DNA from: Candidatus Brennerbacteria bacterium
Lineage (GTDB): Bacteria > Patescibacteriota > Minisyncoccia > UBA6257 > GWB1-50-10
Direction of reading: 5' to 3'
Assembly (NCBI GenBank): GCA_016183535.1
Contig: JACPEK010000004.1
Location: 141,807-205,806, forward strand
DNA length: 64,000 nucleotides
The notes beneath the pieces were generated by a model. The model ran no database searches, was not told the DNA's origin, and worked only from the letters and a program-made list of their open reading frames with translations. Positions 1 through 53,501 of the stretch are shown piece after piece; position 1 is the first letter of the stretch, and each line of letters begins with the position of its first letter. The translations under genes were made by a program, and so were the position numbers.

Positions 1-1
1 G

Positions 2-20911: not shown

Positions 20912-21738
20912 AAGTTTCGCACTCTCCAACTACCCACCAACTGCAAAGTGTCGCGCGTACCGTGCGGCAGTTGGTTTTGGATATGGTGACGCAGAGCAAA
21001 AGCGCTCACCTCGGGAGCAGTTTCTCTGTAGTGGATATCCTCGTCGCACTCTATTTCAATGCGATGAGGGTCTTCCTGAAAAATCCGAAGCATCCAAATC
21101 GGGATCGTCTTCTTTTGAGTAAGGGCCATGCGGGTGCCGCTCTCTATGCTGTGCTGGGTGTGCGAGAGTTTTTCAATGTGAAACTGCTCAAAAAATATCT
21201 TCGGAACGGAACCGCACTTGCGGGACACGCGAGTCAAGCCGCGGTTCCCGGCGTTGAACTTTTTACCGGCTCATTGGGTCATGGTCTTCCGATTGGGACG
21301 GGGATGGCGTTCGCGGGGAAACTCGATAAGAAATCATACCGGGTGTTCGTGGTGATGAGTGACGGAGAATGTGACGAAGGGTCCAACTGGGAAGCCATCC
21401 TTTTCGCGGGGCACCATCAACTGGATAATCTTGTGGCGGTGGTGGATTACAACAAGTGGCAGTCGTTCGGGCGGACTAAGGACATTCTGGACCTCGAACC
21501 GTTCGCGAAGAAATGGAGGGATTTCGGTTGGAATGTAAAAGAGTGCAATGGGCACGATTTTAAGGCGCTCACGAAGGCATTCGCCAAAATCCCGTTCGCA
21601 AAAGGAAAGCCAAGCGTGCTCATCGCCCATACCGTGAAAGGGAGGGGACTTCCCTACGAAAACGAGCTTCGCTCGCACTATAATTCTCCCACCGAGGAAG
21701 AATATCGGTTGGCGAAAGAGCGCATCAAGCATCTATGA
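20908..21738 (+). CDS. Transketolase, N-terminal (ThDP pyrophosphate-binding) subunit, pair 1
   Basis: Contains SKGHAGAALYAV and GSLGHGLPIGTGMA, plus the ThDP/Mg motif VMSDGECDEGSNWEA. The start overlaps the upstream stop (ATGA). Confidence 0.9.
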   Translation: MKVSHSPTTHQLQSVARTVRQLVLDMVTQSKSAHLGSSFSVVDILVALYFNAMRVFLKNPKHPNRDRLLLSKGHAGAALYAVLGVREFFNVKLLKKYLRNGTALAGHASQAAVPGVELFTGSLGHGLPIGTGMAFAGKLDKKSYRVFVVMSDGECDEGSNWEAILFAGHHQLDNLVAVVDYNKWQSFGRTKDILDLEPFAKKWRDFGWNVKECNGHDFKALTKAFAKIPFAKGKPSVLIAHTVKGRGLPYENELRSHYNSPTEEEYRLAKERIKHL

Positions 21739-22664
21739 GAATAGCCTTTATGAAGGCGCTCACGCGTCTTGTAAAAAAAGACAAGCGGGTAATGCTTCTC
21801 ACCGGAGACCTTGGATTCTCGGTCTTTGAGGACTTTGCGCGTCAGTTCCCAAAACAATACCTCAACTGTGGGCTCGCCGAGCAGAATATGGTGGGCATGG
21901 CGGCGGGGCTCGCGTTGAGCGGCAAAAAAGTGTTTGCGTACTCCATCGTCCCCTTTGCAACAATGCGACCATTCGAGCAGGTTCGTGACGATGTGTGTCT
22001 CCACAATCTGGACGTAAAAATAGTGGGAGTAGGCGGTGGGTATAGCTATAGTCAGCTCGGCGCGACGCACCACTCCATCGAAGACATCGCCATCATGAAG
22101 GTGCTGCCGAACATGAAAGTGTTGGTTCCTGCCGACCCCATAGAAACGGAGTTGGCGGTGAAAGCGATGGCGCGCGACCGCGGTCCGGCGTATCTTCGTT
22201 TGGGTAAGAGCAAGGAAGAAAATTTGCACCGCAGAACCTTTCCGTTCGCGATCGGACGATCCAATGTTCTGCGGAAAGGAAGCTCTGTGACCGTCATAGG
22301 ATGCGGTCCGATCCTCAAAAATGTGCTGCGGGCGGCGGAGATCCTGGCGAGGAAGAACATATTCTGCAAGGTCATTTCCATGCCGACCGTGAAACCATTG
22401 GACGAACGCGTGGTCATGAGCGCGACGAAGACCGGACTTGTTATCACTGTGGAGGAGCACAGCGTGATTGGCGGACTGGGGGATTCAGTGGCATCTGTGC
22501 TAGCCCAAGCGGCTCTTCCTAAGAAATGTCGACTCAAAAAAATCGGTGTCGAGGACCGGTTTATGAAGATCGTGGGTGACCAGGAATATTTAAGGTCACA
22601 AAATGGCCTTTCTCCGGAACAGATCGCGAGGTCAATAACTTCACTGATTAAAAAAAGAAGTTAG
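21735..22664 (+). CDS. Transketolase, C-terminal (pyrimidine-binding + C-terminal domain) subunit, pair 1
   Basis: Contains LTGDLGFSVF...GLAEQNMVGMAAGLA and EEHSVIGGLGDSV. Confidence 0.9.
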   Translation: MRIAFMKALTRLVKKDKRVMLLTGDLGFSVFEDFARQFPKQYLNCGLAEQNMVGMAAGLALSGKKVFAYSIVPFATMRPFEQVRDDVCLHNLDVKIVGVGGGYSYSQLGATHHSIEDIAIMKVLPNMKVLVPADPIETELAVKAMARDRGPAYLRLGKSKEENLHRRTFPFAIGRSNVLRKGSSVTVIGCGPILKNVLRAAEILARKNIFCKVISMPTVKPLDERVVMSATKTGLVITVEEHSVIGGLGDSVASVLAQAALPKKCRLKKIGVEDRFMKIVGDQEYLRSQNGLSPEQIARSITSLIKKRS

Positions 22665-23825: not shown

Positions 23826-24764
23826 ATGAAAGAACACCATATTTTCAGTCCTGATGATTTTTCCTCGGCCATAGGTGAGCCCTTAAGCGAGCGGGTGAAG
23901 AGTAAGATAGAGGAGTTGAATATCGAGTATGCACGGATGACACCGCAGGAGAGGGATGAATGCATTAAAACCAGCGTGAAGATACTACTGGACCCGGAAT
24001 TCGACGCGTCCGGAGCGCACCGGTTGGGCAAGTGGGAAAAGGGATGGTCAGAAAACCTGCAGGCATTCCGAGAGAGGGGGAAGGGGGGCCTTGTGCCGGG
24101 CTACTTTTCTGCCACCCGCGATTTGGTCAAGTGGGGAAAGTGGAAGCAAGAGTATATCCGCCCCCTTCAGGGAAACCTCGACTATAAGTTTCTCTCCATA
24201 ATTTTGGAGTGGCTTTTTGAGAAATATATTCCTGCCGCGAGCTCCGTGTACGAGTTTGGGTGCGGCACGGGCCACCACCTTCTGAAGGTGCGGGAATTCA
24301 ACCCGGAAGCAAAGATCTACGGCTTGGATTGGGCCGAAGCGTCCCAGGAGATTATCAAAGAAATGGTTGCAAAAGATGTAGCCAAGAATACCTACGGAAA
24401 GAAATTTGATTTTTTTAATCCCGACGAATCGTTCGCGCTCGACGCCAACAGTGTGGTGTATACCGTAGGCGCTTTAGAGCAGGTTGGAGAAAAACATGAG
24501 AAGTTCATCGCGTATTTGCTCAAGAACAGGCCTAAAATATGTTTCCATGTGGAGCCGATTGGGGAACTGTTGGACGATTCAAATCGCACGGATTTTCTTA
24601 CCCAATCGTACTACCGGAAGAGAAACTATCTCTCGAATTTTGTGAACCACCTCAAGGCGCTGGAGAAAGAGGGGAAAATAAAGATTGAAAAAGCACAAAG
24701 GACCTATTTGGGAGGGAGCTTGCTCACGGAGTATGCGGTGGTCATGTGGAGTCCGGTGGCATAG
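23826..24764 (+). CDS. Class I SAM-dependent methyltransferase
   Basis: Motif I reads VYEFGCGTGHHLL, followed by GLDWAE. Confidence 0.7.
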   Translation: MKEHHIFSPDDFSSAIGEPLSERVKSKIEELNIEYARMTPQERDECIKTSVKILLDPEFDASGAHRLGKWEKGWSENLQAFRERGKGGLVPGYFSATRDLVKWGKWKQEYIRPLQGNLDYKFLSIILEWLFEKYIPAASSVYEFGCGTGHHLLKVREFNPEAKIYGLDWAEASQEIIKEMVAKDVAKNTYGKKFDFFNPDESFALDANSVVYTVGALEQVGEKHEKFIAYLLKNRPKICFHVEPIGELLDDSNRTDFLTQSYYRKRNYLSNFVNHLKALEKEGKIKIEKAQRTYLGGSLLTEYAVVMWSPVA

Positions 24765-24766
24765 CT

Positions 24767-25735
24767 ATGAATTACCGGACATTAGGCGCTACTGGCATTT
24801 CGGTTTCCGAGATAGGTTTTGGCACGTGGGGAATCGGCGGGCTCACCGAGGGCGCCACCTCGTACGGCGAGACCGACGACGCGGTGTCGCTTCGCGCGCT
24901 CGCGCGGGCCCTCGAACTCGGCATGAATTTTTACGACACCTCGAACATCTACGGCCACGAGGGGCACGCGGAGGCACTTCTTGGGGAGGCATTTGGTAAC
25001 CAACGCGAAAGAGTTGTGCTTGCGACAAAAGTCGGATGTGTAAAGCACGGAGGGCCATACGACGTGTCACCGTCCTATATCCGTAGCTGCCTCGAAGCAA
25101 GCCTGCGCCGCCTCAAAACTGACTACGTCGACGTGTACCAACTTCATAGCGTGCCGCTTGAACTTGTGCGGGAGACCCCCGAATGTTTTGCAACATTGAG
25201 AGAGCTAAAGAAGGAAGGAAAGATCCGCGCGATCGGATATTCGGTGAAAAACCCCTCCGATGCCAAGACGGCGATAGAAGAATTCGGCGTGGATGTAGTG
25301 CAACTAAACTTCAACATGATGGACCAGCGCGCGCTTACCGAAGGAATCTTTGATGTGGCCCGTGTGCGCGGCGTTGGCATCATCGTACGGACACCCTTCG
25401 CCTTCGGATTCCTTACCGGAAAAGTCACCGACACTCAGTTCGATTCTCGGGACCATCGTTCCGTGTGGTCGCCGGCACAACTCGCGCGATGGAGGGAGTC
25501 CCCGAACGTTTTTTCCCCGGTGAACGATAAGGGCATCTATACTCCCGCGCAGTTCGCGCTGAAGTTCTGCGTCGCGTTTCCGGAGGTGTCCACGGTGGTC
25601 GCGGGCATGCTCACGGAAACCCAGGCGGAGGAGAACGCGACGGCGAGCGATCTCCCTCCGCTCACCGCCGCACAGCTCGCGGCGATCCGAAAGATCAGAG
25701 AGGTGAACACGTTTTTCGTAAGCGAAAAGAAATAA
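24767..25735 (+). CDS. Aldo/keto reductase family oxidoreductase
   Basis: Contains YRTLGATGISVSEIGFGTW, NFYDTSNIYG and IRAIGYS (AKR catalytic tetrad context). Confidence 0.85.
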   Translation: MNYRTLGATGISVSEIGFGTWGIGGLTEGATSYGETDDAVSLRALARALELGMNFYDTSNIYGHEGHAEALLGEAFGNQRERVVLATKVGCVKHGGPYDVSPSYIRSCLEASLRRLKTDYVDVYQLHSVPLELVRETPECFATLRELKKEGKIRAIGYSVKNPSDAKTAIEEFGVDVVQLNFNMMDQRALTEGIFDVARVRGVGIIVRTPFAFGFLTGKVTDTQFDSRDHRSVWSPAQLARWRESPNVFSPVNDKGIYTPAQFALKFCVAFPEVSTVVAGMLTETQAEENATASDLPPLTAAQLAAIRKIREVNTFFVSEKK

Positions 25736-25825
25736 CCCGCGTAGCCGTCAGTGATTGTCAAGGCAAGAATATTGGTATATAACCAAGGCAAAAGACATTA
25801 CACAATCATAAAGAGACCTCATTCT

Positions 25826-26347
25826 ATGGAAGCACATAAAACGACACTGGACGGCGTATTGCTCATACGGCCCGACTCTCCCATCCACGAGGATTTTCGA
25901 GGCAGGTACGTGACCGCGTACCGCAAAGCCGAGTTCGAAAAGATGGGCATTAACGTGGAGTTTGTGAACGAAAGCTACTCCACCTCTTCAAAGGGGGTGC
26001 TTCGCGGCATCCATGCAGAGACGGATAATTGGAAGCTCATCTCCTGCAGGCGCGGGTGCTTCTACTTGGTGGTGGTCGTGTGCGACGAGCAGTCGAAAGA
26101 TTTCGGAAAATGGGAGTCATTCACGCTCACCGAGCATAATGCGCTCCAAGTGCTCATACCTCCGGGATTCGGGAACGCCCATCTCGCCTTGAGCGACGAC
26201 ATTATGTTTCACTACTTGCAATCCAACTATTTCGATCCCGCCCGTCAGACCACGTACCGCTACGATGACCCGAGGTTCGCCATCTGGTGGCCGATAAAAA
26301 ATCCACTTCTTTCTCCGCGCGATGAAGCGGGGAAGTATGTGGAATGA
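25826..26347 (+). CDS. NDP-4-keto-6-deoxy-sugar 3,5-epimerase (RfbC-like cupin)
   Basis: Contains DFRGRY, SKGVLRGIHAE, LISCRRGCFYLVVV and IPPGFGNAHLALSDD, matching the RfbC signature pattern. Confidence 0.85.
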   Translation: MEAHKTTLDGVLLIRPDSPIHEDFRGRYVTAYRKAEFEKMGINVEFVNESYSTSSKGVLRGIHAETDNWKLISCRRGCFYLVVVVCDEQSKDFGKWESFTLTEHNALQVLIPPGFGNAHLALSDDIMFHYLQSNYFDPARQTTYRYDDPRFAIWWPIKNPLLSPRDEAGKYVE

Positions 26348-26466
26348 TCGACCTCATAGCTCTCGCGCCCCGCATATCAATGCGGGGCGTTTTTTATGCT
26401 CTTGCCAAAATCCCATCGGTGGTATATAACCAAGTCAGAAAACTTTTATAACCAAAGGAGACATTA

Positions 26467-27261
26467 ATGGAGAACTTAGCGGCAATAGCGAAGCAGTGCC
26501 GGCAGAAGGTTCTGGAAATGGCATATGCCGCGAAGGATTCGCACATCGGATGTGCGCTATCTTCCGTGGACGTGTTGGTCCTGCTTTTCTTTCGTGTGAT
26601 GAACGTAAATCCCGAAGACCCGCGTTTTTCCGAAAGGGATCGGTTCATTTTGAGCAAGGGGCACGCGGCAGCGGCACTCTATGCGGTCATGTCCGCGCGC
26701 GGATTTTTCCCCCGGGAAGCGCTCGCAACCTTCGCACAGAACGGAAGTGAACTCGCGAGCCATGTGGAACGGAAGCTTCCTGGCGTGGAGACCAATGGCG
26801 GCTCCGGCGGGCACGGACTTTCGATTGGTGCCGGTATGGCGCTTGCCGCACAGGCGGACGGCGCGAACTATCGCATCTTCATTCTCATGGGAGACGGGGA
26901 ATTGCAGGAAGGGTCTGTGTGGGAAGCGGCAATGTTCGCCTCATCGCGCAACCTTAGCAACCTCACCCTTATCGTGGACCGGAACGGGTTCCAAACGTGG
27001 AACAAGGTGGACGATATCGTCGCCGTAGAATCCCTTGTGGAGAAATTCAGGGCGTTCGGGTGGGATGCGGACGAGGTTAACGGTCACGATTTCGAACGGC
27101 TCGGCAGCGTCATCGAACGAACGGGCGACCGTCCACATGCCATCATTGCACGCACCGTGAAAGGGAAAGGTGTTTCTTTCATGGAAGGTGATGGCGTCTG
27201 GCACTCCAAATCGATGTCGGACGAACACTATCATCGTGCTATGAAGGAGGTGCAATCATGA
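26467..27261 (+). CDS. Transketolase, N-terminal subunit, pair 2 (paralog of 20908-21738)
   Basis: Contains SKGHAAAALYAV, GSGGHGLSIGAGMA and ILMGDGELQEGSVWEA. Confidence 0.9.
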   Translation: MENLAAIAKQCRQKVLEMAYAAKDSHIGCALSSVDVLVLLFFRVMNVNPEDPRFSERDRFILSKGHAAAALYAVMSARGFFPREALATFAQNGSELASHVERKLPGVETNGGSGGHGLSIGAGMALAAQADGANYRIFILMGDGELQEGSVWEAAMFASSRNLSNLTLIVDRNGFQTWNKVDDIVAVESLVEKFRAFGWDADEVNGHDFERLGSVIERTGDRPHAIIARTVKGKGVSFMEGDGVWHSKSMSDEHYHRAMKEVQS

Positions 27262-28166
27262 GAACCGCTTTCGTGGAAACACTCTATGAAGAGGCTCTTC
27301 GTGACCCACGTATCTTCTTCATCACCAGCGATTTTTGGCATGTGAAGGAGGAGGAATTCCGGGCTCTCGGAGCGCGATACCAGAATGGCGGCATGGCCGA
27401 ACAAAACATTATCAGCCTTGCAGTTGGCGCCGCACTCTCAGGGAAGAAGGTTTTTGTGTATTCCATCGTTCCTTTCATCACGCTCCGTTGCATCGAGCAG
27501 GTAAAAGTGGACGTGTGTTCACACGAAGCCGATGTCACCATCGTTGGTGGCGGAGCCGGTTTCACGTACGGAACATGCGGCATAACCCACCTTGCGATCG
27601 AGGACATTGCAATGATGCGCTCACTTCCCCACATGAGAATAATCTCACCTTCAGGATCGGCGGAAGCAAGCGCCCTCTTACGAGAGACCATTCGACTTGG
27701 GGGGCCGACTTACTTTCGCCTCAATATGAGGGAAGATGGTGATCTCACGAGCATGAAGCCCGAAGTAGGAAAGGGAATGATTGTTCGGGAAGGCGTGGAC
27801 GTATGCATCATCGCTACTGGGACCATTCTCGCGGAAGCATTCGGCGTTGCGGACATGCTCGCGGAGAAGGGGATTTCCGTTGAAGTGGTCAACATGCACA
27901 CGATCAAACCTCTCGATGAGGGCCTTGTTCGGGAGCGTGTGCGGTCCCGTCGCGCTGTTTGTACTCTTGAAGAGCACAGCATCATCGGAGGACTTGGTGG
28001 TGCGGTAGCGGAGGTGTTCGCGGAGTCCGGCGGTACGGCCCGATTCAGGCGTTTCGGCATCAAGGATGCATGGCCGACCGTAGTGGGGAGCCAGAAATAT
28101 CTGCGCACCGTGACCGGTATTTCCCAGGAATACCTTGCGGTCGCGATAGAGAAGCTCCTTCAGTAG
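27258..28166 (+). CDS. Transketolase, C-terminal subunit, pair 2
   Basis: Contains GGMAEQNIISLAVGAA and EEHSIIGGLGGAV. Confidence 0.9.
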   Translation: MRTAFVETLYEEALRDPRIFFITSDFWHVKEEEFRALGARYQNGGMAEQNIISLAVGAALSGKKVFVYSIVPFITLRCIEQVKVDVCSHEADVTIVGGGAGFTYGTCGITHLAIEDIAMMRSLPHMRIISPSGSAEASALLRETIRLGGPTYFRLNMREDGDLTSMKPEVGKGMIVREGVDVCIIATGTILAEAFGVADMLAEKGISVEVVNMHTIKPLDEGLVRERVRSRRAVCTLEEHSIIGGLGGAVAEVFAESGGTARFRRFGIKDAWPTVVGSQKYLRTVTGISQEYLAVAIEKLLQ

Positions 28167-28183
28167 TAATATTCATTCGTTCA

Positions 28184-28220
28184 AAAACCTCGGTGTTTCA
28201 CACCCGAGGTTTTTTATTTT
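28184..28220 (+). terminator. Rho-independent terminator after transketolase pair 2
   Basis: Hairpin acctcggtg-tttca-cacccgaggt followed by tttttatttt. Confidence 0.6.
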
Positions 28221-28241
28221 TCACGTCCGCATGCGAGACCA

Positions 28242-28270
28242 TTGACTAAAGCTCGATTTGAGGATATTCT
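28242..28270 (+). promoter_or_regulatory. Sigma70-like promoter TTGACT-17-TATTCT for the SDR gene
   Basis: -35 at 28242-28247. 17-bp spacer. -10 at 28265-28270. RBS aaggaa lies ahead of the ATG at 28300. Confidence 0.4.
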
Positions 28271-28299
28271 ATTCCAAATAAAACTAACAACCTAAAGGA

Positions 28300-29124
28300 A
28301 TGACCATGAAAAACGCAGCGGAAAAGGACCTCGCCGGTCGCGTCGCGCTCATCACGGGAGGCAGTAAGGGCATTGGGAAGACGATAGCCCTGACCCTCGC
28401 GCGGCGAGGCGCCGACATCGTTATCTGCGGCCGAGGCGCATCTGCTCTGGAAACGGCGGCGGAAGAGATACGCGCGTGCGGTTCGACCGTGCATGCCCAC
28501 CCACTTGACGCTACAAAGCTCGAGGGAGTGCGGGATTTTTTTCGCAAGGTTATCGAACCCATTGGACGCCTTGATATTCTCGTGAACAATATCGGGGGAG
28601 TGCGAGAAGTCGCGAAATTTCCCGATCTCACCGATGATGACTGGTACGGAATCTTCGATACCAATCTCATGACCATGGTGCGTGTCACGCGGGAAGCGCT
28701 CAGTTACCTCACAAAATCTCCGTATGCCCGCATCATCAACATTGCGAGCGTGGCAGGGAAACAGCCCGGCGACTGGAACCCTCACTACGGCGCGGTAAAA
28801 GCGGCGATGATCCACCTCTCTAAATCGCTTTCGCGCACCTTGGGACCGGAACACGTGCGGGTAAACGCGATTTGCTCCAGCACCATTAAGGGCGAAGGCG
28901 CGTGGAAGCGGGACGTTGAGAGTAGGATGCGGAGTGGGAACGTCTCGTTTGAGGAAGCGGAGCGCGTACTGGAAGCGGAAGTAAGAGCAAAAGCGCCGCT
29001 CGGAGAGATAGGTACTCCTGCGGATGTCGCGGAACTCGTTGCATTTCTTGCATCGAATCAAGCTTGCTTCATCACCGGCACCTGCATCGAGGTTGATGGT
29101 GGGACGGTTCGATCCATCTTTTAG
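28300..29124 (+). CDS. Short-chain dehydrogenase/reductase (classical SDR, 3-oxoacyl-ACP reductase-like)
   Basis: Contains ALITGGSKGIGK (TGxxxGxG), NNIG and YGAVKAA (YxxxK). Confidence 0.85.
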   Translation: MTMKNAAEKDLAGRVALITGGSKGIGKTIALTLARRGADIVICGRGASALETAAEEIRACGSTVHAHPLDATKLEGVRDFFRKVIEPIGRLDILVNNIGGVREVAKFPDLTDDDWYGIFDTNLMTMVRVTREALSYLTKSPYARIINIASVAGKQPGDWNPHYGAVKAAMIHLSKSLSRTLGPEHVRVNAICSSTIKGEGAWKRDVESRMRSGNVSFEEAERVLEAEVRAKAPLGEIGTPADVAELVAFLASNQACFITGTCIEVDGGTVRSIF

Positions 29125-29139
29125 TATTTTCAATTCGGG

Positions 29140-29176
29140 AAACGCCTCTGTAAAAATCCAGAGGCGTTTTATTTTA
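29140..29176 (+). terminator. Rho-independent terminator after the SDR gene
   Basis: aaacgcctctg-taaaaatc-cagaggcgttt followed by tatttt. Confidence 0.6.
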
Positions 29177-29189
29177 CATTTTGTCTCAA

Positions 29190-29218
29190 TTGACAAAGAG
29201 ACAAAAATTGACATAATC
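29190..29218 (+). promoter_or_regulatory. Sigma70-like promoter TTGACA-17-ATAATC for radical SAM gene 1
   Basis: -35 at 29190-29195 and -10 at 29213-29218. Strong RBS gaaggagg at 29254-29261. ATG at 29268. Confidence 0.45.
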
Positions 29219-29267
29219 ACGCTAGATAATTTAAACAATCACTATAGATCACAGAAGGAGGAACAGG

Positions 29268-31259
29268 ATGAGAACCACAGAGCTTGTGGTAGGGCTGGTG
29301 CAGATCAACAACGGCTACACCGGCCAGTATTATCTCCCGTACTCGGTGGCGATGCTCGAAGCATATGCGAGGAAGAATCTTTCCCGACCGGATCGGTATC
29401 GTTTTCTCGTCCCTATTTATCGCAGGGAGCCGGTCGCGGATGCGGTGGCGAAGTTGCTCGGTGCGGATATCGTAGGGTTCAGCATCTATGTGTGGAACGA
29501 GCAGCTAAGCCTTGCGATCGCGCGAGAACTGAAAAGGCAAAAGCCCGAAGTGCTCGTGGTGTTCGGAGGTCCCCAGGTTCCGGATAACCCGGAGCGTTTC
29601 ATGGAAGAGAACCCCTTCATTGATATCGCGTGTCATGGCGAAGGCGAGAGGGTATTTTGCGCTCTTCTTGAACGATGGGAAGATAAAGAACATATCCCCG
29701 CCATCAGTTATCGGTACAACGGACAGCTCGTGCGGAACCCGCGTTTACCGCGCGTGGAGAACCTAAACGAATTTCCATCCCCATATTTGGACGGGGTTCT
29801 TGATCCTCTCATGCGCGAGAATCCCAACGGGAAATGGAACGCCATTTGGGAAACAAACCGTGGATGCCCCTTCAGTTGCACGTTTTGCGACTGGGGTTCC
29901 GCGGTCAATGCCACGAAGGTGAGGAAATGGGAAGAGGAACGGCTTTTCCGCGAGATAGATTGGTTCGCGGAGCATAAGGTCGATTTCATCTTCGGCGCCG
30001 ATGCCAATTTCGGCATCTTCGAACGTGATATTGGTATCGCAGAGCGTCTTGCGGATTCAAGGCGAAGAACCGGTTTTCCCCGTGCATTCAGCGTTTCAAG
30101 CACCAAGAATGCCACGGAAAGGTCCTTTGCGGCACAGAAAATACTTTCTGACGCCGGATTGAATACTGGTGTAACCGTTTCCATGCAATCCATGGACGTG
30201 GGAACGCTCGTGGCGATCAAGCGGGACAACATTCAGTTGGAGGGCCCAAAGGGTTTCAAGGAACTTCAGCGGAAATTCACGCTTGCAGGAATCCAAACCT
30301 CAACTGATCTCGTCCTGGGATTGCCGGGAGAGACGTACGAATCGTTCGTGCGCGGCGTGAGCGATCTTATCGCGAACGGCCAGCATAATCGCATTCTATT
30401 CTTCAACCTGACCGTCCTTCCGAACGCCGAAATGGGCGATCCGGAATACCAGAAGAAGTACGGGATGGAAACGGTGGAAACGCGCATCATCACGATCCAT
30501 GGCAATCTTCACGATAAGGAAGACGAGGTCGCGGAGTTACAACAGCTGGTGGTCGCGACGAGTACGATGCCGCGAGAGGATTGGGTGCGAGTACGTGCAC
30601 TTTCCTGGATGACTGCGTTTCTGCACTTCGACAAGGTGCTCCAGATTCCGCTTGTGGTCATACATGAGATGACCGGCATTGATTACCGGACGCTCATCGA
30701 GCTATTCTCGGAAGGCTGTTTTGGAAGCGAAGAAGAATTTCCAACCCTTTCCAAGATTCGGAAATTCTTCATTAAGAAGGCCGAGGAGATCCAGGGTGGA
30801 GCGGAGGAGTTCTGTCGTGCGCCCCAGTGGCTTGATCTGTGGTGGCCGACCGATGAGTATATGCTCATCGAACTGGCGACCAGCGGCAATCGCCTCGCGT
30901 TCTATGAGGAAGCCGAACGGGCACTCTCAGTATTTTTGATGGAGAGAGGGATGGGAAGCTGTTGCGGGGTATTGCGCGAAGCGGTCTATCTGAACGAAAG
31001 GATGTTCAAGATGCCGTTTCAGAACGAAAATCGTCGCGTGGAGCTCTCCCATAATCTATGGGAATTCTATTACACTGCGATCTGTGGCAAGCCCATTCCA
31101 TTGGAAGAGAGGGAAACGGTCGTTACCGTTGACTGCACCACCGAACGGTGGGATTCATGGGATGGCTGGTGCCGGTTCGCGGTGTGGTATGCGAGCCATC
31201 CCGGCGCATTCTTCTTTGGTATTACCCCCGACAAGAAGCAGATTGCGGGGCATTGGTAG
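29268..31259 (+). CDS. Cobalamin (B12)-binding-domain radical SAM enzyme (class B rSAM), 663 aa
   Basis: N-terminal B12-binding-like domain with VVFGGPQV. Radical SAM cluster motif CPFSCTFCDW (CxxxCxxC). Long C-terminal extension. Confidence 0.85.
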   Translation: MRTTELVVGLVQINNGYTGQYYLPYSVAMLEAYARKNLSRPDRYRFLVPIYRREPVADAVAKLLGADIVGFSIYVWNEQLSLAIARELKRQKPEVLVVFGGPQVPDNPERFMEENPFIDIACHGEGERVFCALLERWEDKEHIPAISYRYNGQLVRNPRLPRVENLNEFPSPYLDGVLDPLMRENPNGKWNAIWETNRGCPFSCTFCDWGSAVNATKVRKWEEERLFREIDWFAEHKVDFIFGADANFGIFERDIGIAERLADSRRRTGFPRAFSVSSTKNATERSFAAQKILSDAGLNTGVTVSMQSMDVGTLVAIKRDNIQLEGPKGFKELQRKFTLAGIQTSTDLVLGLPGETYESFVRGVSDLIANGQHNRILFFNLTVLPNAEMGDPEYQKKYGMETVETRIITIHGNLHDKEDEVAELQQLVVATSTMPREDWVRVRALSWMTAFLHFDKVLQIPLVVIHEMTGIDYRTLIELFSEGCFGSEEEFPTLSKIRKFFIKKAEEIQGGAEEFCRAPQWLDLWWPTDEYMLIELATSGNRLAFYEEAERALSVFLMERGMGSCCGVLREAVYLNERMFKMPFQNENRRVELSHNLWEFYYTAICGKPIPLEERETVVTVDCTTERWDSWDGWCRFAVWYASHPGAFFFGITPDKKQIAGHW

Positions 31260-31266
31260 AGTTATT

Positions 31267-31304
31267 GATCGACCGGCGCTTGTTGCACCGGTCGATTTTA
31301 TTTT
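31267..31304 (+). terminator. Rho-independent terminator after radical SAM gene 1
   Basis: gatcgaccggcg-cttgttg-caccggtcgat followed by tttatttta. Confidence 0.55.
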
Positions 31305-31314
31305 ATAGGTAATA

Positions 31315-31343
31315 TTGCCAAAATTTGACATATGTGTTATGGT
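31315..31343 (+). promoter_or_regulatory. Sigma70-like promoter TTGCCA-17-TATGGT for radical SAM gene 2
   Basis: -35 at 31315-31320 and -10 at 31338-31343. RBS gagagg. ATG at 31394. Confidence 0.4.
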
Positions 31344-31393
31344 TGCGACAGTTAATTTCAATAACCAAATAATAACCAAAACGAGAGGCAGGA

Positions 31394-33382
31394 ATGGAAA
31401 AGGAGAAGATAGTCATCGGGCTGGTGCAGGTGAACAGCGGATTCTCCGGCCAGCATTACTTCCCGTATTCCGTGGGAGTGCTCCAAGCGTATGCGAAGGA
31501 GCATCTCCCCGGAGTGGAACGTATCGATTTTTTGCTCCCCGTCTACCGCCGCATTCGTGTGGCGGAAGCGGCGGAACAGCTGGAAGGTGCGGACATCGTG
31601 GCATTCAGCACGTATGTCTGGAACATCCGTTTATCACTGGCCATAGCCGCAGAGCTGAAACGGCGCAGACCGAAAACGCTCATCGTGTTCGGTGGGCCGC
31701 AAGTACCGCGTCATGATCGCCCATGGGAAGTCAAAGCGTTCCTCACGAAGAACCCCCAGATTGATGTCGCGATCCATGGCGCAGGCGAAGAGCCGTTCTT
31801 GGGAATTCTCACGCACGGACTCGGGGGAAATTGGGAGCGCATCCCTTCCGCAAGTTTTTTACGTGACACCATGCTTCAACAGAACGCTCCCGCGACCTCG
31901 CTTTCTGATCTTTCCAAAGTCCCTTCCCCATATCTGAGAGGCGTTTTTGATCCGCTCATCGCGGCGAACCCTTCGGAGCGATGGATCGTGCTTTGGGAGA
32001 CCGATCGTAATTGCCCGTTCAGCTGCACGTTTTGTGGCTGGGGACTGCTTGAAAATAAACCCACCGTGTGGCCGATGGACCGTGTCATGAAAGAGGTCGA
32101 CTGGTTCGCGGAACATGAGATTAATTTTGTGTTCTGCGCCAATGCAAACTTTTTTCTGACAAAGCGTGATTTGGAAATTGCGCGCTATGTGGCCGAGACG
32201 AAACTGAAGAGAGGTTTCCCGAGGTTTCTTTCGGTGCAGGACGCAAAGAACTCCGTGGAGCGCGTGTTTGAGGGCAGGATGGTGATGGAGAAAGCGGGAT
32301 TGAACACCGGAGTGGTTATTTCGCTCCAGGCGGTAGATCCTGAAACGCTTCGCATTATTCGACGTAATAACATCAAACTCGACGCGTATCAGGAAGTTCA
32401 ACGGAAGTTCCGCGCGAACGGCATCGAGACCATGACCGACCTCATTCTTCCTTTGGCGGGACAAACGTACCCGAGCTTTGCGAACGGAGTTTCCGAGGTC
32501 ATCGACCACGGCCAGCACAACAGGATTCAGTTCAATTTGTGTTGTTCGGTTCCTGATGCCGAGATGTCCCACCGTGATTATATGGCGCAATACGGTCTTG
32601 AAACGGTAACGACGAAGATGGTCAACATCCATGGCAAGGTCGAAAATGAAGAGGTTCCCGAAACCCAGGACCTCATTATTGCGACTGCGGCCATGCCGAG
32701 AGAGGATTGGGTGCGTGCACGCGCGTTCAGTTGGATGGTGGGACTTCTGCATTTCGACAAACTCCTGCAGATTCCTATTGTGCTCATCCGAAAGCTCGCG
32801 AACGCGAGCTACCGGGAGATCGTAGAATTTTTCTCCGAAGGCCAATTTGGTTCTCGGGAAGCATTTCCCAGCCTGACCAGGATCCGCGAGTTTTTCCTCG
32901 AGAAAGCTCGTGATATCCAGAACGGCGGGACCGAGTACGTTCATTCGAAGGAATGGCTCGACATCTACTGGCCTGCTGACGAGTTCATCTTTATTGAGCT
33001 CGCCATCAAAGGAAAACTCGAGGAGTTCTATGTTGAAGCGGAACTGGCGTTGAAGCGTTTTCTGGAACAGCGGGAAGTTTCCATCCAGGGGAAATTGCTT
33101 CGCGACGCATTTCGTCTCAACCAGAGCTTGCTGAAGCAACCATTCCAAACGCGGGATGTGACCGTGGATCTCACCTACAATGTGTGGGAATTCTACCGTG
33201 GTGTGATGGATGGGAGGGAGGTTCCAATCGAGGAAGGGAAATTCCAGTATCACATTGATCGCACTAGCGTTCGATGGGAGACATGGGAGACCTGGTGCCG
33301 CGAGGTGGTGTGGTTCGGTAACAAGCGCGGCGCATATCTCTACGGGAACATTCCTGTCGAGCAGATCGCCGGACACTACTAA
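31394..33382 (+). CDS. Cobalamin (B12)-binding-domain radical SAM enzyme, paralog of 29268-31259 (662 aa)
   Basis: Contains IVFGGPQV and CPFSCTFCGW (CxxxCxxC). Colinear with gene 1 at roughly 50% identity by eye. Confidence 0.85.
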   Translation: MEKEKIVIGLVQVNSGFSGQHYFPYSVGVLQAYAKEHLPGVERIDFLLPVYRRIRVAEAAEQLEGADIVAFSTYVWNIRLSLAIAAELKRRRPKTLIVFGGPQVPRHDRPWEVKAFLTKNPQIDVAIHGAGEEPFLGILTHGLGGNWERIPSASFLRDTMLQQNAPATSLSDLSKVPSPYLRGVFDPLIAANPSERWIVLWETDRNCPFSCTFCGWGLLENKPTVWPMDRVMKEVDWFAEHEINFVFCANANFFLTKRDLEIARYVAETKLKRGFPRFLSVQDAKNSVERVFEGRMVMEKAGLNTGVVISLQAVDPETLRIIRRNNIKLDAYQEVQRKFRANGIETMTDLILPLAGQTYPSFANGVSEVIDHGQHNRIQFNLCCSVPDAEMSHRDYMAQYGLETVTTKMVNIHGKVENEEVPETQDLIIATAAMPREDWVRARAFSWMVGLLHFDKLLQIPIVLIRKLANASYREIVEFFSEGQFGSREAFPSLTRIREFFLEKARDIQNGGTEYVHSKEWLDIYWPADEFIFIELAIKGKLEEFYVEAELALKRFLEQREVSIQGKLLRDAFRLNQSLLKQPFQTRDVTVDLTYNVWEFYRGVMDGREVPIEEGKFQYHIDRTSVRWETWETWCREVVWFGNKRGAYLYGNIPVEQIAGHY

Positions 33383-33386
33383 CGTG

Positions 33387-33418
33387 AAAAGAGGCGTTGT
33401 AAAACGCCTCTTTTTTAT
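33387..33418 (+). terminator. Rho-independent terminator after radical SAM gene 2
   Basis: aagaggcgtt-gtaa-aacgcctctt followed by ttttttatt. Confidence 0.6.
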
Positions 33419-33458
33419 TGCAAATTTCGACTCAATCATTTACGATACCAAAGCATTT

Positions 33459-34451
33459 ATGATCCTTACACGAACGCCCTACCGCATCTCGTTCTTCGGC
33501 GGTGGGACCGACTATCCGGCGTGGTTCGAAAACTTCGGCACCGGCGCCGTACTTTCCACCACTATCGACAAATATTGCTATCTGGCATGCCGTTTTTTGC
33601 CGCCTTTCTTCGAGCACAAGAGCAGGATCGTGTGGTCGAAGATAGAAGTGGTGAATCACCACGACGATATCGAACATCCGACCGCGCGCGAAGCGCTCAA
33701 GCTTCTCGACGTTAAAGACGGCGTGGAGATACACCACTATGGCGACTTGCCCGCGCGGAGCGGCATGGGATCCAGCTCGGCCTTTGCGGTGGGACTACTC
33801 CACGCCTTAAATGTGCTCCACGGACGTCCCGTCACTAAAAAGCAGCTCGCGATGGATTCGATCCATATCGAGCAGGAACGGCTGGGACATAGCGTGGGGT
33901 GCCAGGACCAGACTGCGGCGGCGTACGGAGGGTTCAATCGCATAACCTTCGGAGGATCCGAGAAGATCAACGTCCGTCCCGTCACCGCCTCTCCGGAAAC
34001 CAAAGAGGTGCTTCAAGAGCGGCTCCTCATGTTCTTCACGGGTCTCTCACGGGACGCGTTCGAGGTAGCGGAGCAACAAGTTCGCGTGACCGGTCAAAAA
34101 AAAGAAGAACTCACAAAAATGCTCTCTTTGGTGGACCAAGCGGAAAAAATTCTACAGGAAACCCCGCACCACATTGATGAATTCGGCAGACTTCTTCATG
34201 AAACCTGGACGCTCAAAAGGAGTTTGACAGATGTGATCTCCAATTCTCGGATTGATGACATCTATGAGCGTGCTCGCGCGGCGGGTGCGCTCGGCGGTAA
34301 GTTGTTGGGAGCGGGAGGTGGAGGATTTTTATTGTTGTATGTGAAGCCGGAGGAACAAGAAACCGTGAAGAGCGCACTCAAAGATCTTTTACATGTGCCG
34401 TTTTCATTCGAGAATGAGGGTACTAAACTTATATATCAAGACGGTTCGTAG
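33459..34451 (+). CDS. GHMP-family sugar kinase (D-glycero-D-manno-heptose 7-phosphate kinase HddA-like)
   Basis: N-terminus reads MILTRTPYRISFFGGGTDYP. GHMP ATP motif reads PARSGMGSSSAFAVG. ATG at 33459, since the longer ORF overlaps the upstream gene and terminator. Confidence 0.8.
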   Translation: MILTRTPYRISFFGGGTDYPAWFENFGTGAVLSTTIDKYCYLACRFLPPFFEHKSRIVWSKIEVVNHHDDIEHPTAREALKLLDVKDGVEIHHYGDLPARSGMGSSSAFAVGLLHALNVLHGRPVTKKQLAMDSIHIEQERLGHSVGCQDQTAAAYGGFNRITFGGSEKINVRPVTASPETKEVLQERLLMFFTGLSRDAFEVAEQQVRVTGQKKEELTKMLSLVDQAEKILQETPHHIDEFGRLLHETWTLKRSLTDVISNSRIDDIYERARAAGALGGKLLGAGGGGFLLLYVKPEEQETVKSALKDLLHVPFSFENEGTKLIYQDGS

Positions 34452-34453
34452 CA

Positions 34454-35506
34454 ATGAGTAACGTCGTACGCATTATGACCATCCTTATTACTGGAAATCG
34501 TGGGTATATCGGACCTATTCTCGTCGAAATGCTCTTAGCGAAAGGGTATGAGGTGGTAGGTTATGATGCCGGCTATTACGCTGGCAATGAGCTCTACACA
34601 ACCAAGAACGAAATAAAACAAATCACAAAAGACGTAAGAGAAATCAAGGAAGAAGATCTGAACGGCGTTGATGTGGTCATACATCTGGCGGGGCTTAGCA
34701 CCGATCCGCTGGGGGAATTAGACGAACGCCTCACCGAGGAGATTAATTTTAGAGCGACTATCAAACTTGCAAGACTTGCAAGAAGCGCGGGAGTTAAGCG
34801 TTTTGTGTATGCTTCTTCCCAGAGCATGTACGGAGTGGCGGACACCGATTACGAGTTGGATGAAGATGCGCCAAAAAATCCCGTTACGGCCTATGCCCGC
34901 ACCAAATGGGAGGCGGAGCAAGAATTGGGAAAGCTCGATAGTGATGATTTTACAGTGACGTCGTTCAGGCCTTCAACGGTGTTCGGTCCGAGCCCAAACT
35001 TGAGGTGTGATATTGTATTTAATAGTCTTGTGGCGTCGGCGTATACCACCGGCAACATTGAGATCAAAAGTGACGGCACTCCGTGGAGGCCCGTGGTTCA
35101 CATCAAGGACGTTTCAAGGGCTTTTATCGCGGGCATAGAAGCTCCGCGGGAGTTGGTGGGAGGCCAATCCTTCAACGTCGGCATTCCGAACGGGAATTAT
35201 ACCGTGAGGGAACTTGCGGAGGCCGCACAGCGCGCGGTTCCCGGGAGCAAGTTGAAATTCACAGGCGAACACGGCCCCGACTCGAGGACGTACCGAGTCT
35301 CATTCAAAAAGATACTCTCGGTTCTTAAAGATTATTACAAGCCGGAGTGGGATTTAGATAAAGGAGGGGAGGAGCTTATAGCTTTCTTCAAGCGAGTGAA
35401 TTTCACTGAGGCGCAATTTCGAGGAAGACCGGCGATACGCCTTGAGCAGATCAAATATCTTTTGCGTGGAAAGAAATTAGACGAGAATTTGTTATGGCGC
35501 ACGTAA
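34454..35506 (+). CDS. NAD-dependent epimerase/dehydratase family protein (extended SDR)
   Basis: Contains ILITGNRGYIGP and YARTKWEAE (YxxxK). Confidence 0.8.
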   Translation: MSNVVRIMTILITGNRGYIGPILVEMLLAKGYEVVGYDAGYYAGNELYTTKNEIKQITKDVREIKEEDLNGVDVVIHLAGLSTDPLGELDERLTEEINFRATIKLARLARSAGVKRFVYASSQSMYGVADTDYELDEDAPKNPVTAYARTKWEAEQELGKLDSDDFTVTSFRPSTVFGPSPNLRCDIVFNSLVASAYTTGNIEIKSDGTPWRPVVHIKDVSRAFIAGIEAPRELVGGQSFNVGIPNGNYTVRELAEAAQRAVPGSKLKFTGEHGPDSRTYRVSFKKILSVLKDYYKPEWDLDKGGEELIAFFKRVNFTEAQFRGRPAIRLEQIKYLLRGKKLDENLLWRT

Positions 35507-36240
35507 CTCGTATTACTCAAGCGGTTATACTTGCGGGAGGCGCAGGAACCCGTCTCAAACCCCTCACCGATCACACGCCAAAGCCGATGATACTCATGAA
35601 CGGCAAGCCCTTTCTTGAGTATTTAATTAAACAATTAAAGGAAAACGGTATTGAAGAAGTTCTCCTCCTTCTCGGCTACTTACCGGAGAAAACCATTGCT
35701 CATTTTGGAGATGGAGCGAAGTTTGGTGTGAGAATAAAATATTCCGTCACCCCCGTGGAAGACAGCATTGGCACGCGTATCCGAAAGGCGGCTGATCTTA
35801 TGGAGGACTATTTTATCCTCTTGAACTGTGACAACTTCTGGCCTCTTCGCATCGAGGAATTGGTGAAGTTTCACAATAAAATGAATTCTCTCATAACTAC
35901 GGTCGTATATACCAACAAGAATGGCATCACAAAGAACAATGTATTGGTGGATGACGAAGGATATATTGTGCGGTTTGATCCGTCCCGTACCGATCCGGAT
36001 TTGAACGGAGTGAATCTTGTATACGCCATTACCAGTAAGGAAGTGATTGGTCTTATGCCGACAGGAGATTTTGACTATGAGAAGGTAATGTTTCCCATGC
36101 TCATTGCCCAACGCAAACTCGCGGGATATCGGAGCGATGAGCGACATCATAGTATTGGAAGCTTGGAACGTCTCCCCGGGACCGAACAGTTTTTGAAAAC
36201 GCTCGATGAAAAAAATAAAAACGAAAGCAATCTTTCTTGA
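35494..36240 (+). CDS. Sugar-1-phosphate nucleotidyltransferase (HddC / mannose-1-P guanylyltransferase-like)
   Basis: Contains AVILAGGAGTRLKPLTDHTPKPM (the G-x-G-T-R-L motif of NTP-transferases). About 248 aa. Confidence 0.8.
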   Translation: MAHVTRITQAVILAGGAGTRLKPLTDHTPKPMILMNGKPFLEYLIKQLKENGIEEVLLLLGYLPEKTIAHFGDGAKFGVRIKYSVTPVEDSIGTRIRKAADLMEDYFILLNCDNFWPLRIEELVKFHNKMNSLITTVVYTNKNGITKNNVLVDDEGYIVRFDPSRTDPDLNGVNLVYAITSKEVIGLMPTGDFDYEKVMFPMLIAQRKLAGYRSDERHHSIGSLERLPGTEQFLKTLDEKNKNESNLS

Positions 36241-36784
36241 TAGGGACGGTACAATCGTTCGTCACACGAAAAAATTTATTGTTCGCGCTTCCCAACTACG
36301 TCTTCTCGCGGGCGTTCCGGAGGCACTCCGGGCGTTCAATGAAATGGGTTTCTTAGCCGTCCTTATTACGAATCAACCGGTTATCTCTCGCGGTCTTATA
36401 ACGCCGCGCGGCATGGAGAAACTCCACGCTTCTCTTTTTGAGAGACTTAAACGTCGTGGTGCGCGTATTGATGCCGCATACGTATGTCCCCACCATCCCG
36501 ACGGGAAAATTCCTCCTTACGGCAGAAAATGTCGTTGCAGAAAACCGGAGCCCGGGATGATTTTACAGGCGATAAAAGATATGAATATAGATCCAAGAAA
36601 AAGCTTTATGATAGGCGACGCGTTGATAGATATAGTGACAGGAAAGAAGGCGCACACGCGCACTATTTTGGTAAAAACCGGACCGGGCCATTCACGCTTA
36701 GATAAATTTTACCAACGCACCAAGCCGAATTTTGTCGCAAAAAACCTCCTTGTCGCCGCAAGGATAGTTAAAAAAGTGAAATAA
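36206..36784 (+). CDS. gmhB: D,D-heptose 1,7-bisphosphate phosphatase (HAD-IIIA, GmhB-like)
   Basis: Contains AIFLDRDGTIV (the DxDGT motif). The Zn-binding insert reads CPHHPDGKIPPYGRKCRCRKP. Also contains MIGDALIDI. Confidence 0.85.
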   Translation: MKKIKTKAIFLDRDGTIVRHTKKFIVRASQLRLLAGVPEALRAFNEMGFLAVLITNQPVISRGLITPRGMEKLHASLFERLKRRGARIDAAYVCPHHPDGKIPPYGRKCRCRKPEPGMILQAIKDMNIDPRKSFMIGDALIDIVTGKKAHTRTILVKTGPGHSRLDKFYQRTKPNFVAKNLLVAARIVKKVK

Positions 36785-44083: not shown

Positions 44084-44148
44084 CGAGGTTCGGTTATTTG
44101 GTAATTTTGTTTCAATATATCAAACCCGTCAATATTTAGCAAAACCGA

Positions 44149-46008: not shown

Positions 46009-46012
46009 GGAT

Positions 46013-47488: not shown

Positions 47489-47491
47489 GCG

Positions 47492-48805: not shown

Positions 48806-48900
48806 AATTAATAGGGTATAGGGTTTAGAGGCTAGGGTCTAGACCGGAAAGTATAAACAGTGGGGTTGACTTTCATGCGTCGGAATCTACGATAGTTCGT

Positions 48901-49725: not shown

Positions 49726-49766
49726 CTGAGGGTGGACGCTCGGAGGATTTTTGAAATTTCCGGTCC

Positions 49767-49943
49767 ATGAAAGAGAAAAAATTTTTGCGGTGGGTGTTCC
49801 TTGCGGGGGGGCTATGGATCGCCGCCTCTCCGTGGATTCTCGGTTTTGCGTCGGCGAATCTCGGCAGATGGTCAAATGTGATGGTCGGCGGGTTGGTGGC
49901 GCTCGCCGCGCTCTATCTTTCAGCATCCGAAAAGGAAAGTTAG
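49767..49943 (+). CDS. Small (58 aa) two-helix membrane protein with SPW motif (SPW-repeat-like); not in the supplied ORF track
   Basis: Translation is MKEKKFLRWVFLAGGLWIAASPWILGFASANLGRWSNVMVGGLVALAALYLSASEKES. This frame is chosen over the 49751-49966 frame because of its coherent TM character. Confidence 0.4.
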   Translation: MKEKKFLRWVFLAGGLWIAASPWILGFASANLGRWSNVMVGGLVALAALYLSASEKES

Positions 49944-49970
49944 GAAAGGTCGCGAATCCCTTTTAAAACC

Positions 49971-50099: not shown

Positions 50100-50105
50100 T
50101 CGCCG

Positions 50106-51062: not shown

Positions 51063-51069
51063 AAAGACT

Positions 51070-51480: not shown

Positions 51481-51549
51481 ATAAAAATCCTGCGCATCGC
51501 TCCGTCGCGCCATGGCGCGGCGGGTTTTTTGCTATCATAAGAGAGCGAT

Positions 51550-51990: not shown

Positions 51991-51997
51991 CGGTAGT

Positions 51998-53497: not shown

Positions 53498-53501
53498 CGC
53501 G

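Follow-up and report, generated by a model that had tools for sequence, protein, structure and literature searches.

Two adjacent genes for class B radical SAM proteins

We analysed a stretch of 64,000 nucleotides from contig JACPEK010000004.1 of a Candidatus Brennerbacteria bacterium (hereafter referred to as the window), in which two adjacent genes, rS1 and rS2, encode radical S-adenosylmethionine (SAM) proteins in the midst of sugar genes. The two colinear open reading frames (ORFs; Table 1) lie exactly where the initial annotation of this DNA had placed them, and the motifs that it quoted are present as LVVFGGPQVP and CPFSCTFCDW in rS1 and as LIVFGGPQVP and CPFSCTFCGW in rS2. BLASTP aligned the two proteins end to end, over 670 columns, with 48% identity and 69% positives, in agreement with the earlier estimate of roughly 50% identity. 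Both exceeded the Pfam cut-offs for the B12-binding domain PF02310 (50.2 bits for rS1 and 35.8 bits for rS2; cut-off, 32.1 bits) and the Radical_SAM domain PF04055 (36.6 and 42.0 bits, respectively; cut-off, 29.5 bits), and the cluster cysteines of the CxxxCxxC motif (C200, C204 and C207 in rS1 numbering) are invariant across 96 members of the family. rS1 and rS2 are thus predicted to be class B (cobalamin-binding) radical SAM proteins, as had been proposed.

Table 1. Features of the window around rS1 and rS2 (coordinates are those of the window)
Feature	Coordinates	Strand	Remarks
NDP-hexose 4,6-dehydratase-like gene	17061–18128	+	NDP, nucleoside diphosphate
RfbH-like PLP 3-dehydrase/aminotransferase	18141–19397	+	PLP, pyridoxal phosphate
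Split transketolase-like ThDP enzyme, pair 1	20791–22664	+	ThDP, thiamine diphosphate
Aldo-keto reductase (AKR)	24746–25735	+	
RmlC-like cupin 3,5-epimerase	25751–26347	+	True start possibly 25826
Intrinsic terminator	26365–26390	+	After RmlC-like gene; 11-bp stem, then TTTTTT
Split transketolase-like ThDP enzyme, pair 2	26467–28166	+	N subunit 26467–27261, C subunit 27258–28166
Intrinsic terminator	28181–28216	+	After transketolase pair 2
Promoter-like site	28242–28270	+	Upstream of SDR; TTGACT-17-TATTCT
Classical short-chain dehydrogenase/reductase (SDR)	28300–29124	+	FabG / glucose-1-dehydrogenase-like
Intrinsic terminator	29140–29169	+	After SDR
Promoter-like site	29190–29217	+	Upstream of rS1; TTGACA-16-TGaCATAAT; 11/12 positions, extended -10
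rS1, TokK/CysS-clade cobalamin-dependent radical SAM enzyme (predicted)	29268–31259	+	663 aa; deposited as MBI2278863.1
Intrinsic terminator	31267–31297	+	After rS1
Promoter-like site	31315–31343	+	Upstream of rS2; TTGCCA-17-TGtTATGGT
rS2, second TokK/CysS-clade B12 radical SAM enzyme (predicted)	31394–33382	+	662 aa; deposited as MBI2278864.1
Intrinsic terminator	33388–33413	+	After rS2
Sugar-activation operon	33459–36784	+	Comprises the next four genes
HddA-like GHMP kinase	33459–34451	+	
NDP-sugar SDR	34454–35506	+	
Nucleotidyltransferase	35494–36240	+	
GmhB-like HAD phosphatase	36206–36784	+	

The closest characterised relatives are TokK and CysS

Among solved structures, only TokK and CysS were matched meaningfully in the sequence search. 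TokK, which together with ThnK represents carbapenem C6 alkylation (PDB 7KDX and 7KDY), was the best match (E = 4e-99 for rS1 and 2.8e-80 for rS2; 31–32% identity), followed by CysS, the iterative methoxy methylase of cystobactamid (PDB 9N1B-D; E = 1.5e-57 and 2.2e-51, respectively). A profile of the 96 family members matched TokK with an E-value of 6.6e-128. The AlphaFold2 model of rS1 (pLDDT 89.7, pTM 0.90) was compared with known folds by Foldseek. It matched TokK with a template-modelling (TM) score of 0.82 over 638–654 columns, of 663 residues, and CysS with a score of 0.74–0.75 at about 22% identity in the structural alignment, and the scores for TsrM, OxsB, the methyl-coenzyme M reductase (MCR) glutamine methylase and AprD4 were each 0.51 or lower. 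The Rossmann domain of the model superposes on that of TokK. HMMER gave no alignment of the C-terminal 185 residues with TokK, whose C-terminal domain was termed distinct to TokK in the paper describing it. Since this domain superposes in the full-length structural match, the predicted structure of rS1 shares the TokK-type C-terminal domain and with it the three-domain architecture of TokK.

Two tryptophans that are invariant in the family, including rS1 and rS2, follow the same pattern. W76, in the motif YVWN, aligns with W76 of TokK, which lies under the corrin and has a counterpart under the cobalt of CysS (W75); W209, which follows the cluster motif (CDW in rS1 and CGW in rS2), aligns with the active-site residue W215 of TokK. 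The genomic settings differ: the substrates of TokK and CysS are a pantetheinylated carbapenam in an antibiotic cluster and a pantetheinylated aminobenzoate in a nonribosomal peptide synthetase context, respectively, whereas rS1 and rS2 sit among nucleotide-sugar and polysaccharide genes.

In the NCBIfam scan, the KedN5 model NF033712, which describes C-methyltransferases dependent on methylcobalamin, was the top match of both proteins (252.2 bits for rS1 and 179.3 bits for rS2). Only residues 59–482 align with it and the scores lie far under its cut-off of 700 bits, so that rS1 and rS2 are not members of the KedN5 family, even though this is the curated model on which they score best. The BchE, HpnJ/HpnR and PhpK models and those for ribosomally synthesised and post-translationally modified peptides gave only 30–74 bits. 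These scores bear on the alternative that the B12-dependent radical chemistry of rS1 and rS2 is not a methyl transfer but resembles the reactions of OxsB or BchE, for example a rearrangement, a ring contraction or a cyclisation. Class B radical SAM enzymes do include non-methylases (review PMC9204698), but the fold and the signature residues of our proteins follow the methylases TokK and CysS, OxsB reaches a TM score of only 0.51, and BchE and the other non-methylase models score 32–44 bits versus 252 and 179 bits for KedN5. We therefore regard this alternative as very improbable.

The initial annotation had named the gentamicin enzymes GenK and GenD1 as known sugar examples, but the nearest characterised relatives are TokK and CysS rather than enzymes of the GenK, GenD1, Fom3, TsrM, BchE or HpnP types, and no Pfam match to the C-terminal domain DUF4070, which it had also brought up, was obtained for rS1 or rS2 at E ≤ 0.01. 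Specific sequence affinity to GenK or Fom3 types was not detected in libraries that included no GenK, GenD1 or Fom3 model or structure; every specific match was to TokK, CysS or KedN5. GenK, GenD1, Fom3 and MoeK5 are class B radical SAM enzymes that act on sugars or small polar substrates. They have in common with rS1 and rS2 the enzyme class and, if our proposal below is right, the B12-dependent radical C-methylation of an unactivated carbon in a carbohydrate-type substrate, but they act on antibiotic intermediates, not on surface-polysaccharide precursors, and are not known to be associated with ThDP/AKR cassettes such as the one described in the next section. On this evidence, rS1 and rS2 are TokK/CysS-clade enzymes with a probably different substrate, and do not appear to be GenK/GenD1-like.

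A gene cassette conserved across phyla accompanies the family

Homologues of rS1 are numerous: more than 7,700 proteins were found at E ≤ 1e-10, mostly full length and 52–57% identical. When one genome per species was scanned, at least 573 family loci were found in the species-representative genomes, spanning at least a dozen phylum-level groups according to the depositors' labels. The carriers include Elusimicrobiota, Nitrospirota (Nitrospiraceae), Acidobacteriota, Planctomycetota, Omnitrophota, Cyanobacteria, Alpha- and Betaproteobacteria, Spirochaetes (Leptonemataceae), Gemmatimonadota and lineages of the candidate phyla radiation (CPR; Saccharibacteria/Patescibacteria), and among the cultured carriers are Enhydrobacter aerosaccus ATCC 27094 (locus L052) and Kovacikia minuta CCNUW1. 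Members are deposited as YgiQ, MiaB or generic radical SAM proteins, and no curated family model in the NCBIfam scan captures the clade. Some members are about 1,000 residues long. Fusion to a partner enzyme was considered for these and rejected, because the extra sequence is an intein with a LAGLIDADG or HINT domain; P0201, P0212, P0218, P0236 and P0273 (about 1,000–1,090 aa) carry Intein_splicing together with LAGLIDADG_3 or HINT/DUF559. The intein lies at about residues 240–600, between the B12-binding domain and the remainder of the radical SAM domain, which suggests an insertion site within a highly conserved catalytic region.

We searched 80 retrieved loci with the proteins of the window and with Pfam-annotated proteins from other loci, and counted co-occurrence in the 40 loci from other phyla that have at least 8 kb on both sides. 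Genes for the alpha and beta subunits of a ThDP enzyme, mostly co-directional with the radical SAM gene, were present in 36 and 35 of these loci, respectively. An NDP-sugar SDR gene was found in 37 loci, in 23 of them directly adjacent, and an AKR gene in 31, lying immediately downstream in 29, all on the same strand. Genes for a GHMP kinase (32/40), a nucleotidyltransferase (24/40), a GmhB-like HAD phosphatase (22/40), an RfbH/DegT-type enzyme (21/40) and an RmlC-like epimerase (17/40) followed. The association with these partners persists when the loci are dereplicated (35 clusters, 70% identity), and the same partners occur on independent metagenomic contigs. Locus L088 exemplifies the canonical cassette, which consists of genes for an alpha-like and a beta-like subunit of pyruvate dehydrogenase E1 (PDH-E1), a GDP-fucose-synthase-like SDR, the radical SAM protein and an AKR. 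ThDP pairs of this PDH-E1 alpha/beta-like kind prevail at most loci other than the window, and some loci (L003, L005 and L088) have two ThDP pairs. The initial annotation had asked whether homologues co-occur with HddA-, GmhB- or ColD-like genes, naming an absence of glycan genes elsewhere as evidence against its proposal; HddA-like kinases, GmhB-like phosphatases and RfbH/ColD-like enzymes accompany the family in many phyla, so that such an absence is clearly not what the loci show.

Accompanied most strongly by an AKR, an NDP-sugar SDR and a ThDP enzyme of two subunits, the family points to a branched-chain sugar rather than to simple ring methylation. In paulomycin biosynthesis, Pau11 and Pau12, which resemble the E1 alpha- and beta-type proteins AviB1 and AviB2, attach a C-4' acetyl branch that the AKR Pau7 reduces to hydroxyethyl, giving the branch of paulomycose (PMC4753412). 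Equivalent branching and reduction are carried out by YerE/YerF for yersiniose and by ErwE/ErwF for erwiniose, both O-antigen sugars (PMC9306805). The pairing of a ThDP enzyme with a ketoreductase is thus common to these systems and to the family cassette. They differ in that the pathways as described (PMC4753412, PMC9306805) lack a B12 radical SAM enzyme and that longer branches come from longer keto-acid donors (PMC9306805), whereas in the family cassette the gene for a TokK-like methylase separates the ThDP/NDP-SDR genes from the AKR gene. This gene position, together with the fact that TokK targets a carbon alpha to a carbonyl, favours methylation of the side chain. Erwiniose or caryophyllose as the product, by way of the heptose genes and C7 methylation, was considered and rejected as a specific claim, because YerE-like ThDP enzymes with longer keto-acid donors already explain these sugars (PMC9306805).

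The co-occurrence counts also bear on the alternative that the skeleton of the nucleotide sugar, either a heptose-type terminal CH2OH or a ring carbon, is methylated instead of a ThDP-derived branch, with the ThDP enzymes, the AKR and the SDR serving separate steps. The frequent presence of the HddA-like kinase, the GmhB-like phosphatase and the nucleotidyltransferase fits such a reaction, as do the 4,6-dehydratase-like and RfbH-like genes of the window, which are typical of deoxy-sugar routes; moreover, hydroxymethyl-type carbons are within the reach of class B enzymes, as GenK and Fom3 demonstrate. The radical SAM gene, however, is linked most tightly with the genes for the ThDP pair, the NDP-SDR and the AKR, with which it forms one co-directional cassette, and sequence affinity to the GenK/Fom3 types does not extend beyond the shared domains. 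Methylation of the skeleton therefore seems rather unlikely to us.

The glycan island in the window

The cluster location given by the initial annotation is borne out by the surrounding genes. rS1 and rS2 lie in a glycan island of about 35 kb with a GC content of 0.48–0.54, as against 0.58–0.60 in the flanks; compared by position, window 12000–44000 has a GC content of 0.46–0.54 and the flanks (1–10000 and 44000–60000) one of 0.55–0.65. Besides the sugar genes of Table 1, among them the activation operon that directly follows rS2, the island encodes an initiating sugar transferase, a Wzx flippase, a Wzy-like protein (polymerase or ligase) and many family 2 (GT2) and family 4 (GT4) glycosyltransferases and SAM-dependent methyltransferases. 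The block from a GT2 gene (22671) to the kinase gene (end, 34451) is syntenic with three related loci, L001, L002 and L029, at 47–75% protein identity, except for the slot of the second radical SAM gene. The 24–34 kb block, with a GC content of 0.53–0.54, roughly coincides with this synteny block, which begins at about 22.7 kb; it suggests a mosaic, horizontally exchanged module.

A classical SDR gene directly 5' of the radical SAM gene is shared with L001, L002, L029 and L087, and transketolase pair 2 is 62–70% identical to the pair in L001, L002 and L029. The two ThDP pairs of the window, which are 41–43% identical to each other, equal the radical SAM genes in number, and the AKR is 43–61% identical to the AKR found immediately 3' of the radical SAM gene elsewhere. 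The GmhA-like SIS isomerase, the small cytidylyltransferase and the 277-aa protein of the relatives were not found in the 64-kb window. The GHMP kinase scored 142 bits on the HddA model, which has a cut-off of 600 bits. Homologues of this kinase are present at 47 of the 80 loci and are about 50% identical across phyla; the kinase linked to the family may be a dedicated one for an unusual sugar.

A third possibility is that rS1 and rS2 act on something other than a nucleotide sugar. One candidate is a sugar phosphate or ketose that has yet to be activated, handled by the ThDP enzyme, the radical SAM enzyme, the AKR, the GHMP kinase and the nucleotidyltransferase in this order; another is an acyl group bound to pantetheine or to a carrier, which would later be attached to an amino sugar. 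TokK and CysS bind their pantetheinylated substrates via the cobalamin-binding and C-terminal domains, and the C-terminal subunits of the split transketolases also score on DXS models. That the GHMP kinase is so well conserved without being a true HddA suggests that an unusual sugar, free or phosphorylated, has a kinase of its own. On the other hand, no acyl carrier protein, CoA-ligase or acyltransferase domain occurs among the annotated genes of the inspected cassettes, no carrier-protein gene was found in the genomic context of the window cluster, and the NDP-sugar SDR gene directly adjoins the radical SAM gene at the 23 loci mentioned above. We consider a substrate of this kind improbable.

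Several other features of the window were recorded. A 312-aa protein encoded at 23826–24764 has only a weak match, to Methyltransf_31, and no NCBIfam match; it is 60–67% identical to its counterparts in L001, L002 and L029 and was found at 20 of the 80 loci. An asparagine synthase gene (AsnB-type amidotransferase; 44149–46008, minus strand) adjoins the genes for the Wzx flippase and the initiating sugar transferase, and its product may amidate a uronic acid or similar glycan residue. Just 5' of the island, where the GC content is 0.61–0.65, an ORF of 1,139 codons (6555–9974) has an N-terminal peptidoglycan-binding domain as its sole Pfam match. Genes for tRNA-Lys and tRNA-Asn lie at 60143–60218 (minus strand) and 61372–61446 (plus strand), respectively, and after them the GC content falls to 0.42 (62000–64000), with a long minus-strand ORF at 61432–63060; the region is a candidate for a foreign segment or a hotspot of integration.

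Each radical SAM gene is preceded by a terminator and a promoter-like site

Hairpins with stems of 11–13 bp and a T-run were predicted in five consecutive intergenic regions, which are AT-rich (GC content, 0.34–0.37), and those after the SDR gene, rS1 and rS2 agree with the terminators described by the initial annotation. The surrounding genes overlap or are spaced by 2–15 nt, so that the contrast it drew with tightly packed neighbours also stands. All three promoter-like sites that it listed exist, with the correction that the register of the rS1 site was off by one base (TTGACA-16-CATAAT, not TTGACA-17-ATAATC). Even a looser scan (stem ≥ 9 bp) gave only about five such hairpins per strand in block-shuffled 64-kb sequence. 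The loose terminator scan (19 found versus 16 expected) and the promoter hexamer matches alone (12 found versus 10.3 expected) were at chance level, and we therefore relied on the strict hairpin criteria and on related loci.

For this purpose, we aligned seven spacers from the window and from L001, L002 and L029, whose radical SAM proteins are 54–75% identical to rS1. These seven intergenic regions 5' of radical SAM genes share one layout: a hairpin, a T-run, TTGCCA or TTGACA, about 17 nt and TGnTAnnnT. The TG of the extended -10 element is invariant in all seven, while the hairpin sequences differ between loci. A strong Shine-Dalgarno sequence precedes each radical SAM gene in L001, L002 and L029. 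The SDR gene was also said to be packaged in the same manner; this applies to the window, where a terminator and a promoter-like site precede it, but in L001 and L002 the SDR gene has no preceding terminator, and the stand-alone SDR unit is thus specific to the window. In an Rfam scan of the window the two tRNAs were the sole matches; the AT-rich spacers matched neither a cobalamin riboswitch nor any other RNA family. We propose that rS1 and rS2 would each form a terminator-bounded, promoter-driven cassette of its own.

rS1 and rS2 belong to different subclades

The initial annotation had described rS1 and rS2 as tandem paralogs. They are homologous neighbours, but a local duplication is not what their relationships indicate. 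rS1 is 72–75% identical to the product of the first radical SAM gene of L001 and L002 (L001_a and L002_a). rS2, in turn, is 70–72% identical to P0122–P0125 and to the protein of L087, and only 48–51% identical to anything in L001 or L002. At L087, the rS2-type gene is the only radical SAM gene and is flanked by SDR and AKR genes. The second radical SAM gene of L001 (L001:12114–14102) and L002 (L002:12901–14889) represents a third lineage, the "b" type. At L002, an extra Methyltransf_21 gene lies between the two radical SAM genes. Counting the 10 kb to each side, 79 of the 80 genome loci have a single copy of the radical SAM gene, and both the rS1 and the rS2 type are found singly elsewhere.

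The colinearity, equal length and 48% identity of the two genes could be taken to mean that the pair is a recent, redundant tandem duplication, with the intergenic hairpins and hexamers being incidental. Each protein, however, has closer relatives elsewhere than its neighbour, the rS2 type occurs alone at L087, the second slot of L001 and L002 is filled by a third lineage, and relatives show the same succession of terminator and promoter although their hairpins differ in sequence. A recent tandem duplication is contradicted by the identities and by the neighbour-joining tree, and the explanation as a whole is scarcely credible. As judged from these comparisons, rS1 and rS2 belong to different subclades and are not local duplicates. 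Since the subclade in the second slot differs among syntenic relatives, the second radical SAM gene appears to have been exchanged between related clusters, which would fit self-contained terminator-plus-promoter cassettes that can be swapped. Their membership in different subclades also makes it probable that rS1 and rS2 serve separate steps or separate sugars.

A proposed role in C-methylation of a surface sugar

Taking the TokK-like fold and the conserved cassette together, we think it fairly probable that rS1 and rS2 are non-redundant TokK/ThnK/CysS-clade C-methyltransferases acting on a nucleotide sugar destined for a surface polysaccharide of the Wzx/Wzy type. That their substrate belongs to a sugar pathway, in whichever form, we hold to be likely. 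By homology and structure prediction, each enzyme would carry a [4Fe-4S] cluster on the CxxxCxxC motif and base-off cobalamin above W76. As in TokK and CysS, a first SAM would methylate cob(I)alamin and a second would be cleaved to a 5'-deoxyadenosyl radical, which would abstract a hydrogen atom from an unactivated sp3 carbon; the substrate radical would then capture the methyl group from methylcobalamin, and the cycle may repeat on one substrate. The gene context suggests as substrate a nucleotide-activated deoxy-keto sugar supplied by the surrounding genes. We tentatively place the methylation on the two-carbon side chain installed by the ThDP enzyme, or on a neighbouring carbon, before ketoreduction. 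The AKR, the SDR or both would subsequently reduce the side-chain ketone, and the finished sugar would be built into the Wzx/Wzy-dependent polysaccharide.

Several observations speak against this proposal or limit it. TokK and CysS are both iterative methylases of pantetheinylated, non-sugar substrates, and R280, which binds the substrate carboxylate in TokK, is replaced by serine in both rS1 and rS2, so that the TokK binding mode is not transferable. For the whole family, the substrate is one that we infer. The kinase and the nucleotidyltransferase of the window score far under the HddA and HddC cut-offs, which makes even the sugar skeleton uncertain. The ThDP enzymes of the window are transketolase-like, not PDH-E1-like, and the transferred two-carbon unit may therefore differ. 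The AKR gene lies 3.5 kb upstream of the radical SAM genes and is not adjacent to them, and the co-occurrence counts are inflated by one Reyranella-type cluster, which accounts for 35 of the 80 loci. As for expression, the host is a metagenome-assembled genome labelled CPR, a group for which we know of no experimental promoter consensus, and the promoters are predicted ones.

To our knowledge, nearly all characterised class B methylases belong to pathways for antibiotics, cofactors, lipids or the modification of proteins. A literature search for B12 radical SAM enzymes linked to polysaccharides, O-antigens or capsules returned nothing relevant, with subscription journals outside its coverage, and no description of a ThDP/NDP-SDR/AKR cassette with a radical SAM gene was found in the open literature. 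The words sugar, glycan and polysaccharide are absent from a 2026 review of class B radical SAM enzymes. While the enzyme class and the chemistry are known, the clade, its conserved cassette and its embedding in surface-glycan loci across phyla appear to be undescribed.

If the proposal is correct, radical C-alkylation would be added to the known chemistry of bacterial cell-surface sugars, undiscovered monosaccharides would be predicted and catalysts for the C-alkylation of sugars would become available. A more specific and rather speculative possibility is a phylum-spanning route to alkyl-extended branched sugars, in which a ThDP enzyme adds an acyl branch, a B12 radical enzyme elongates it by methylation (acetyl to propionyl or isobutyryl) and an AKR fixes it as a hydroxyalkyl group; the two subclades and two ThDP pairs of the window would then produce a doubly modified sugar or two sugars. 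Function is directly testable in the cultured carriers E. aerosaccus ATCC 27094 and K. minuta CCNUW1. CPR bacteria have small genomes and mostly do not synthesise cobalamin, so that the glycan would depend on scavenged B12, and the surface structure of B12-auxotrophic episymbionts would be tied to the cobalamin that they scavenge.

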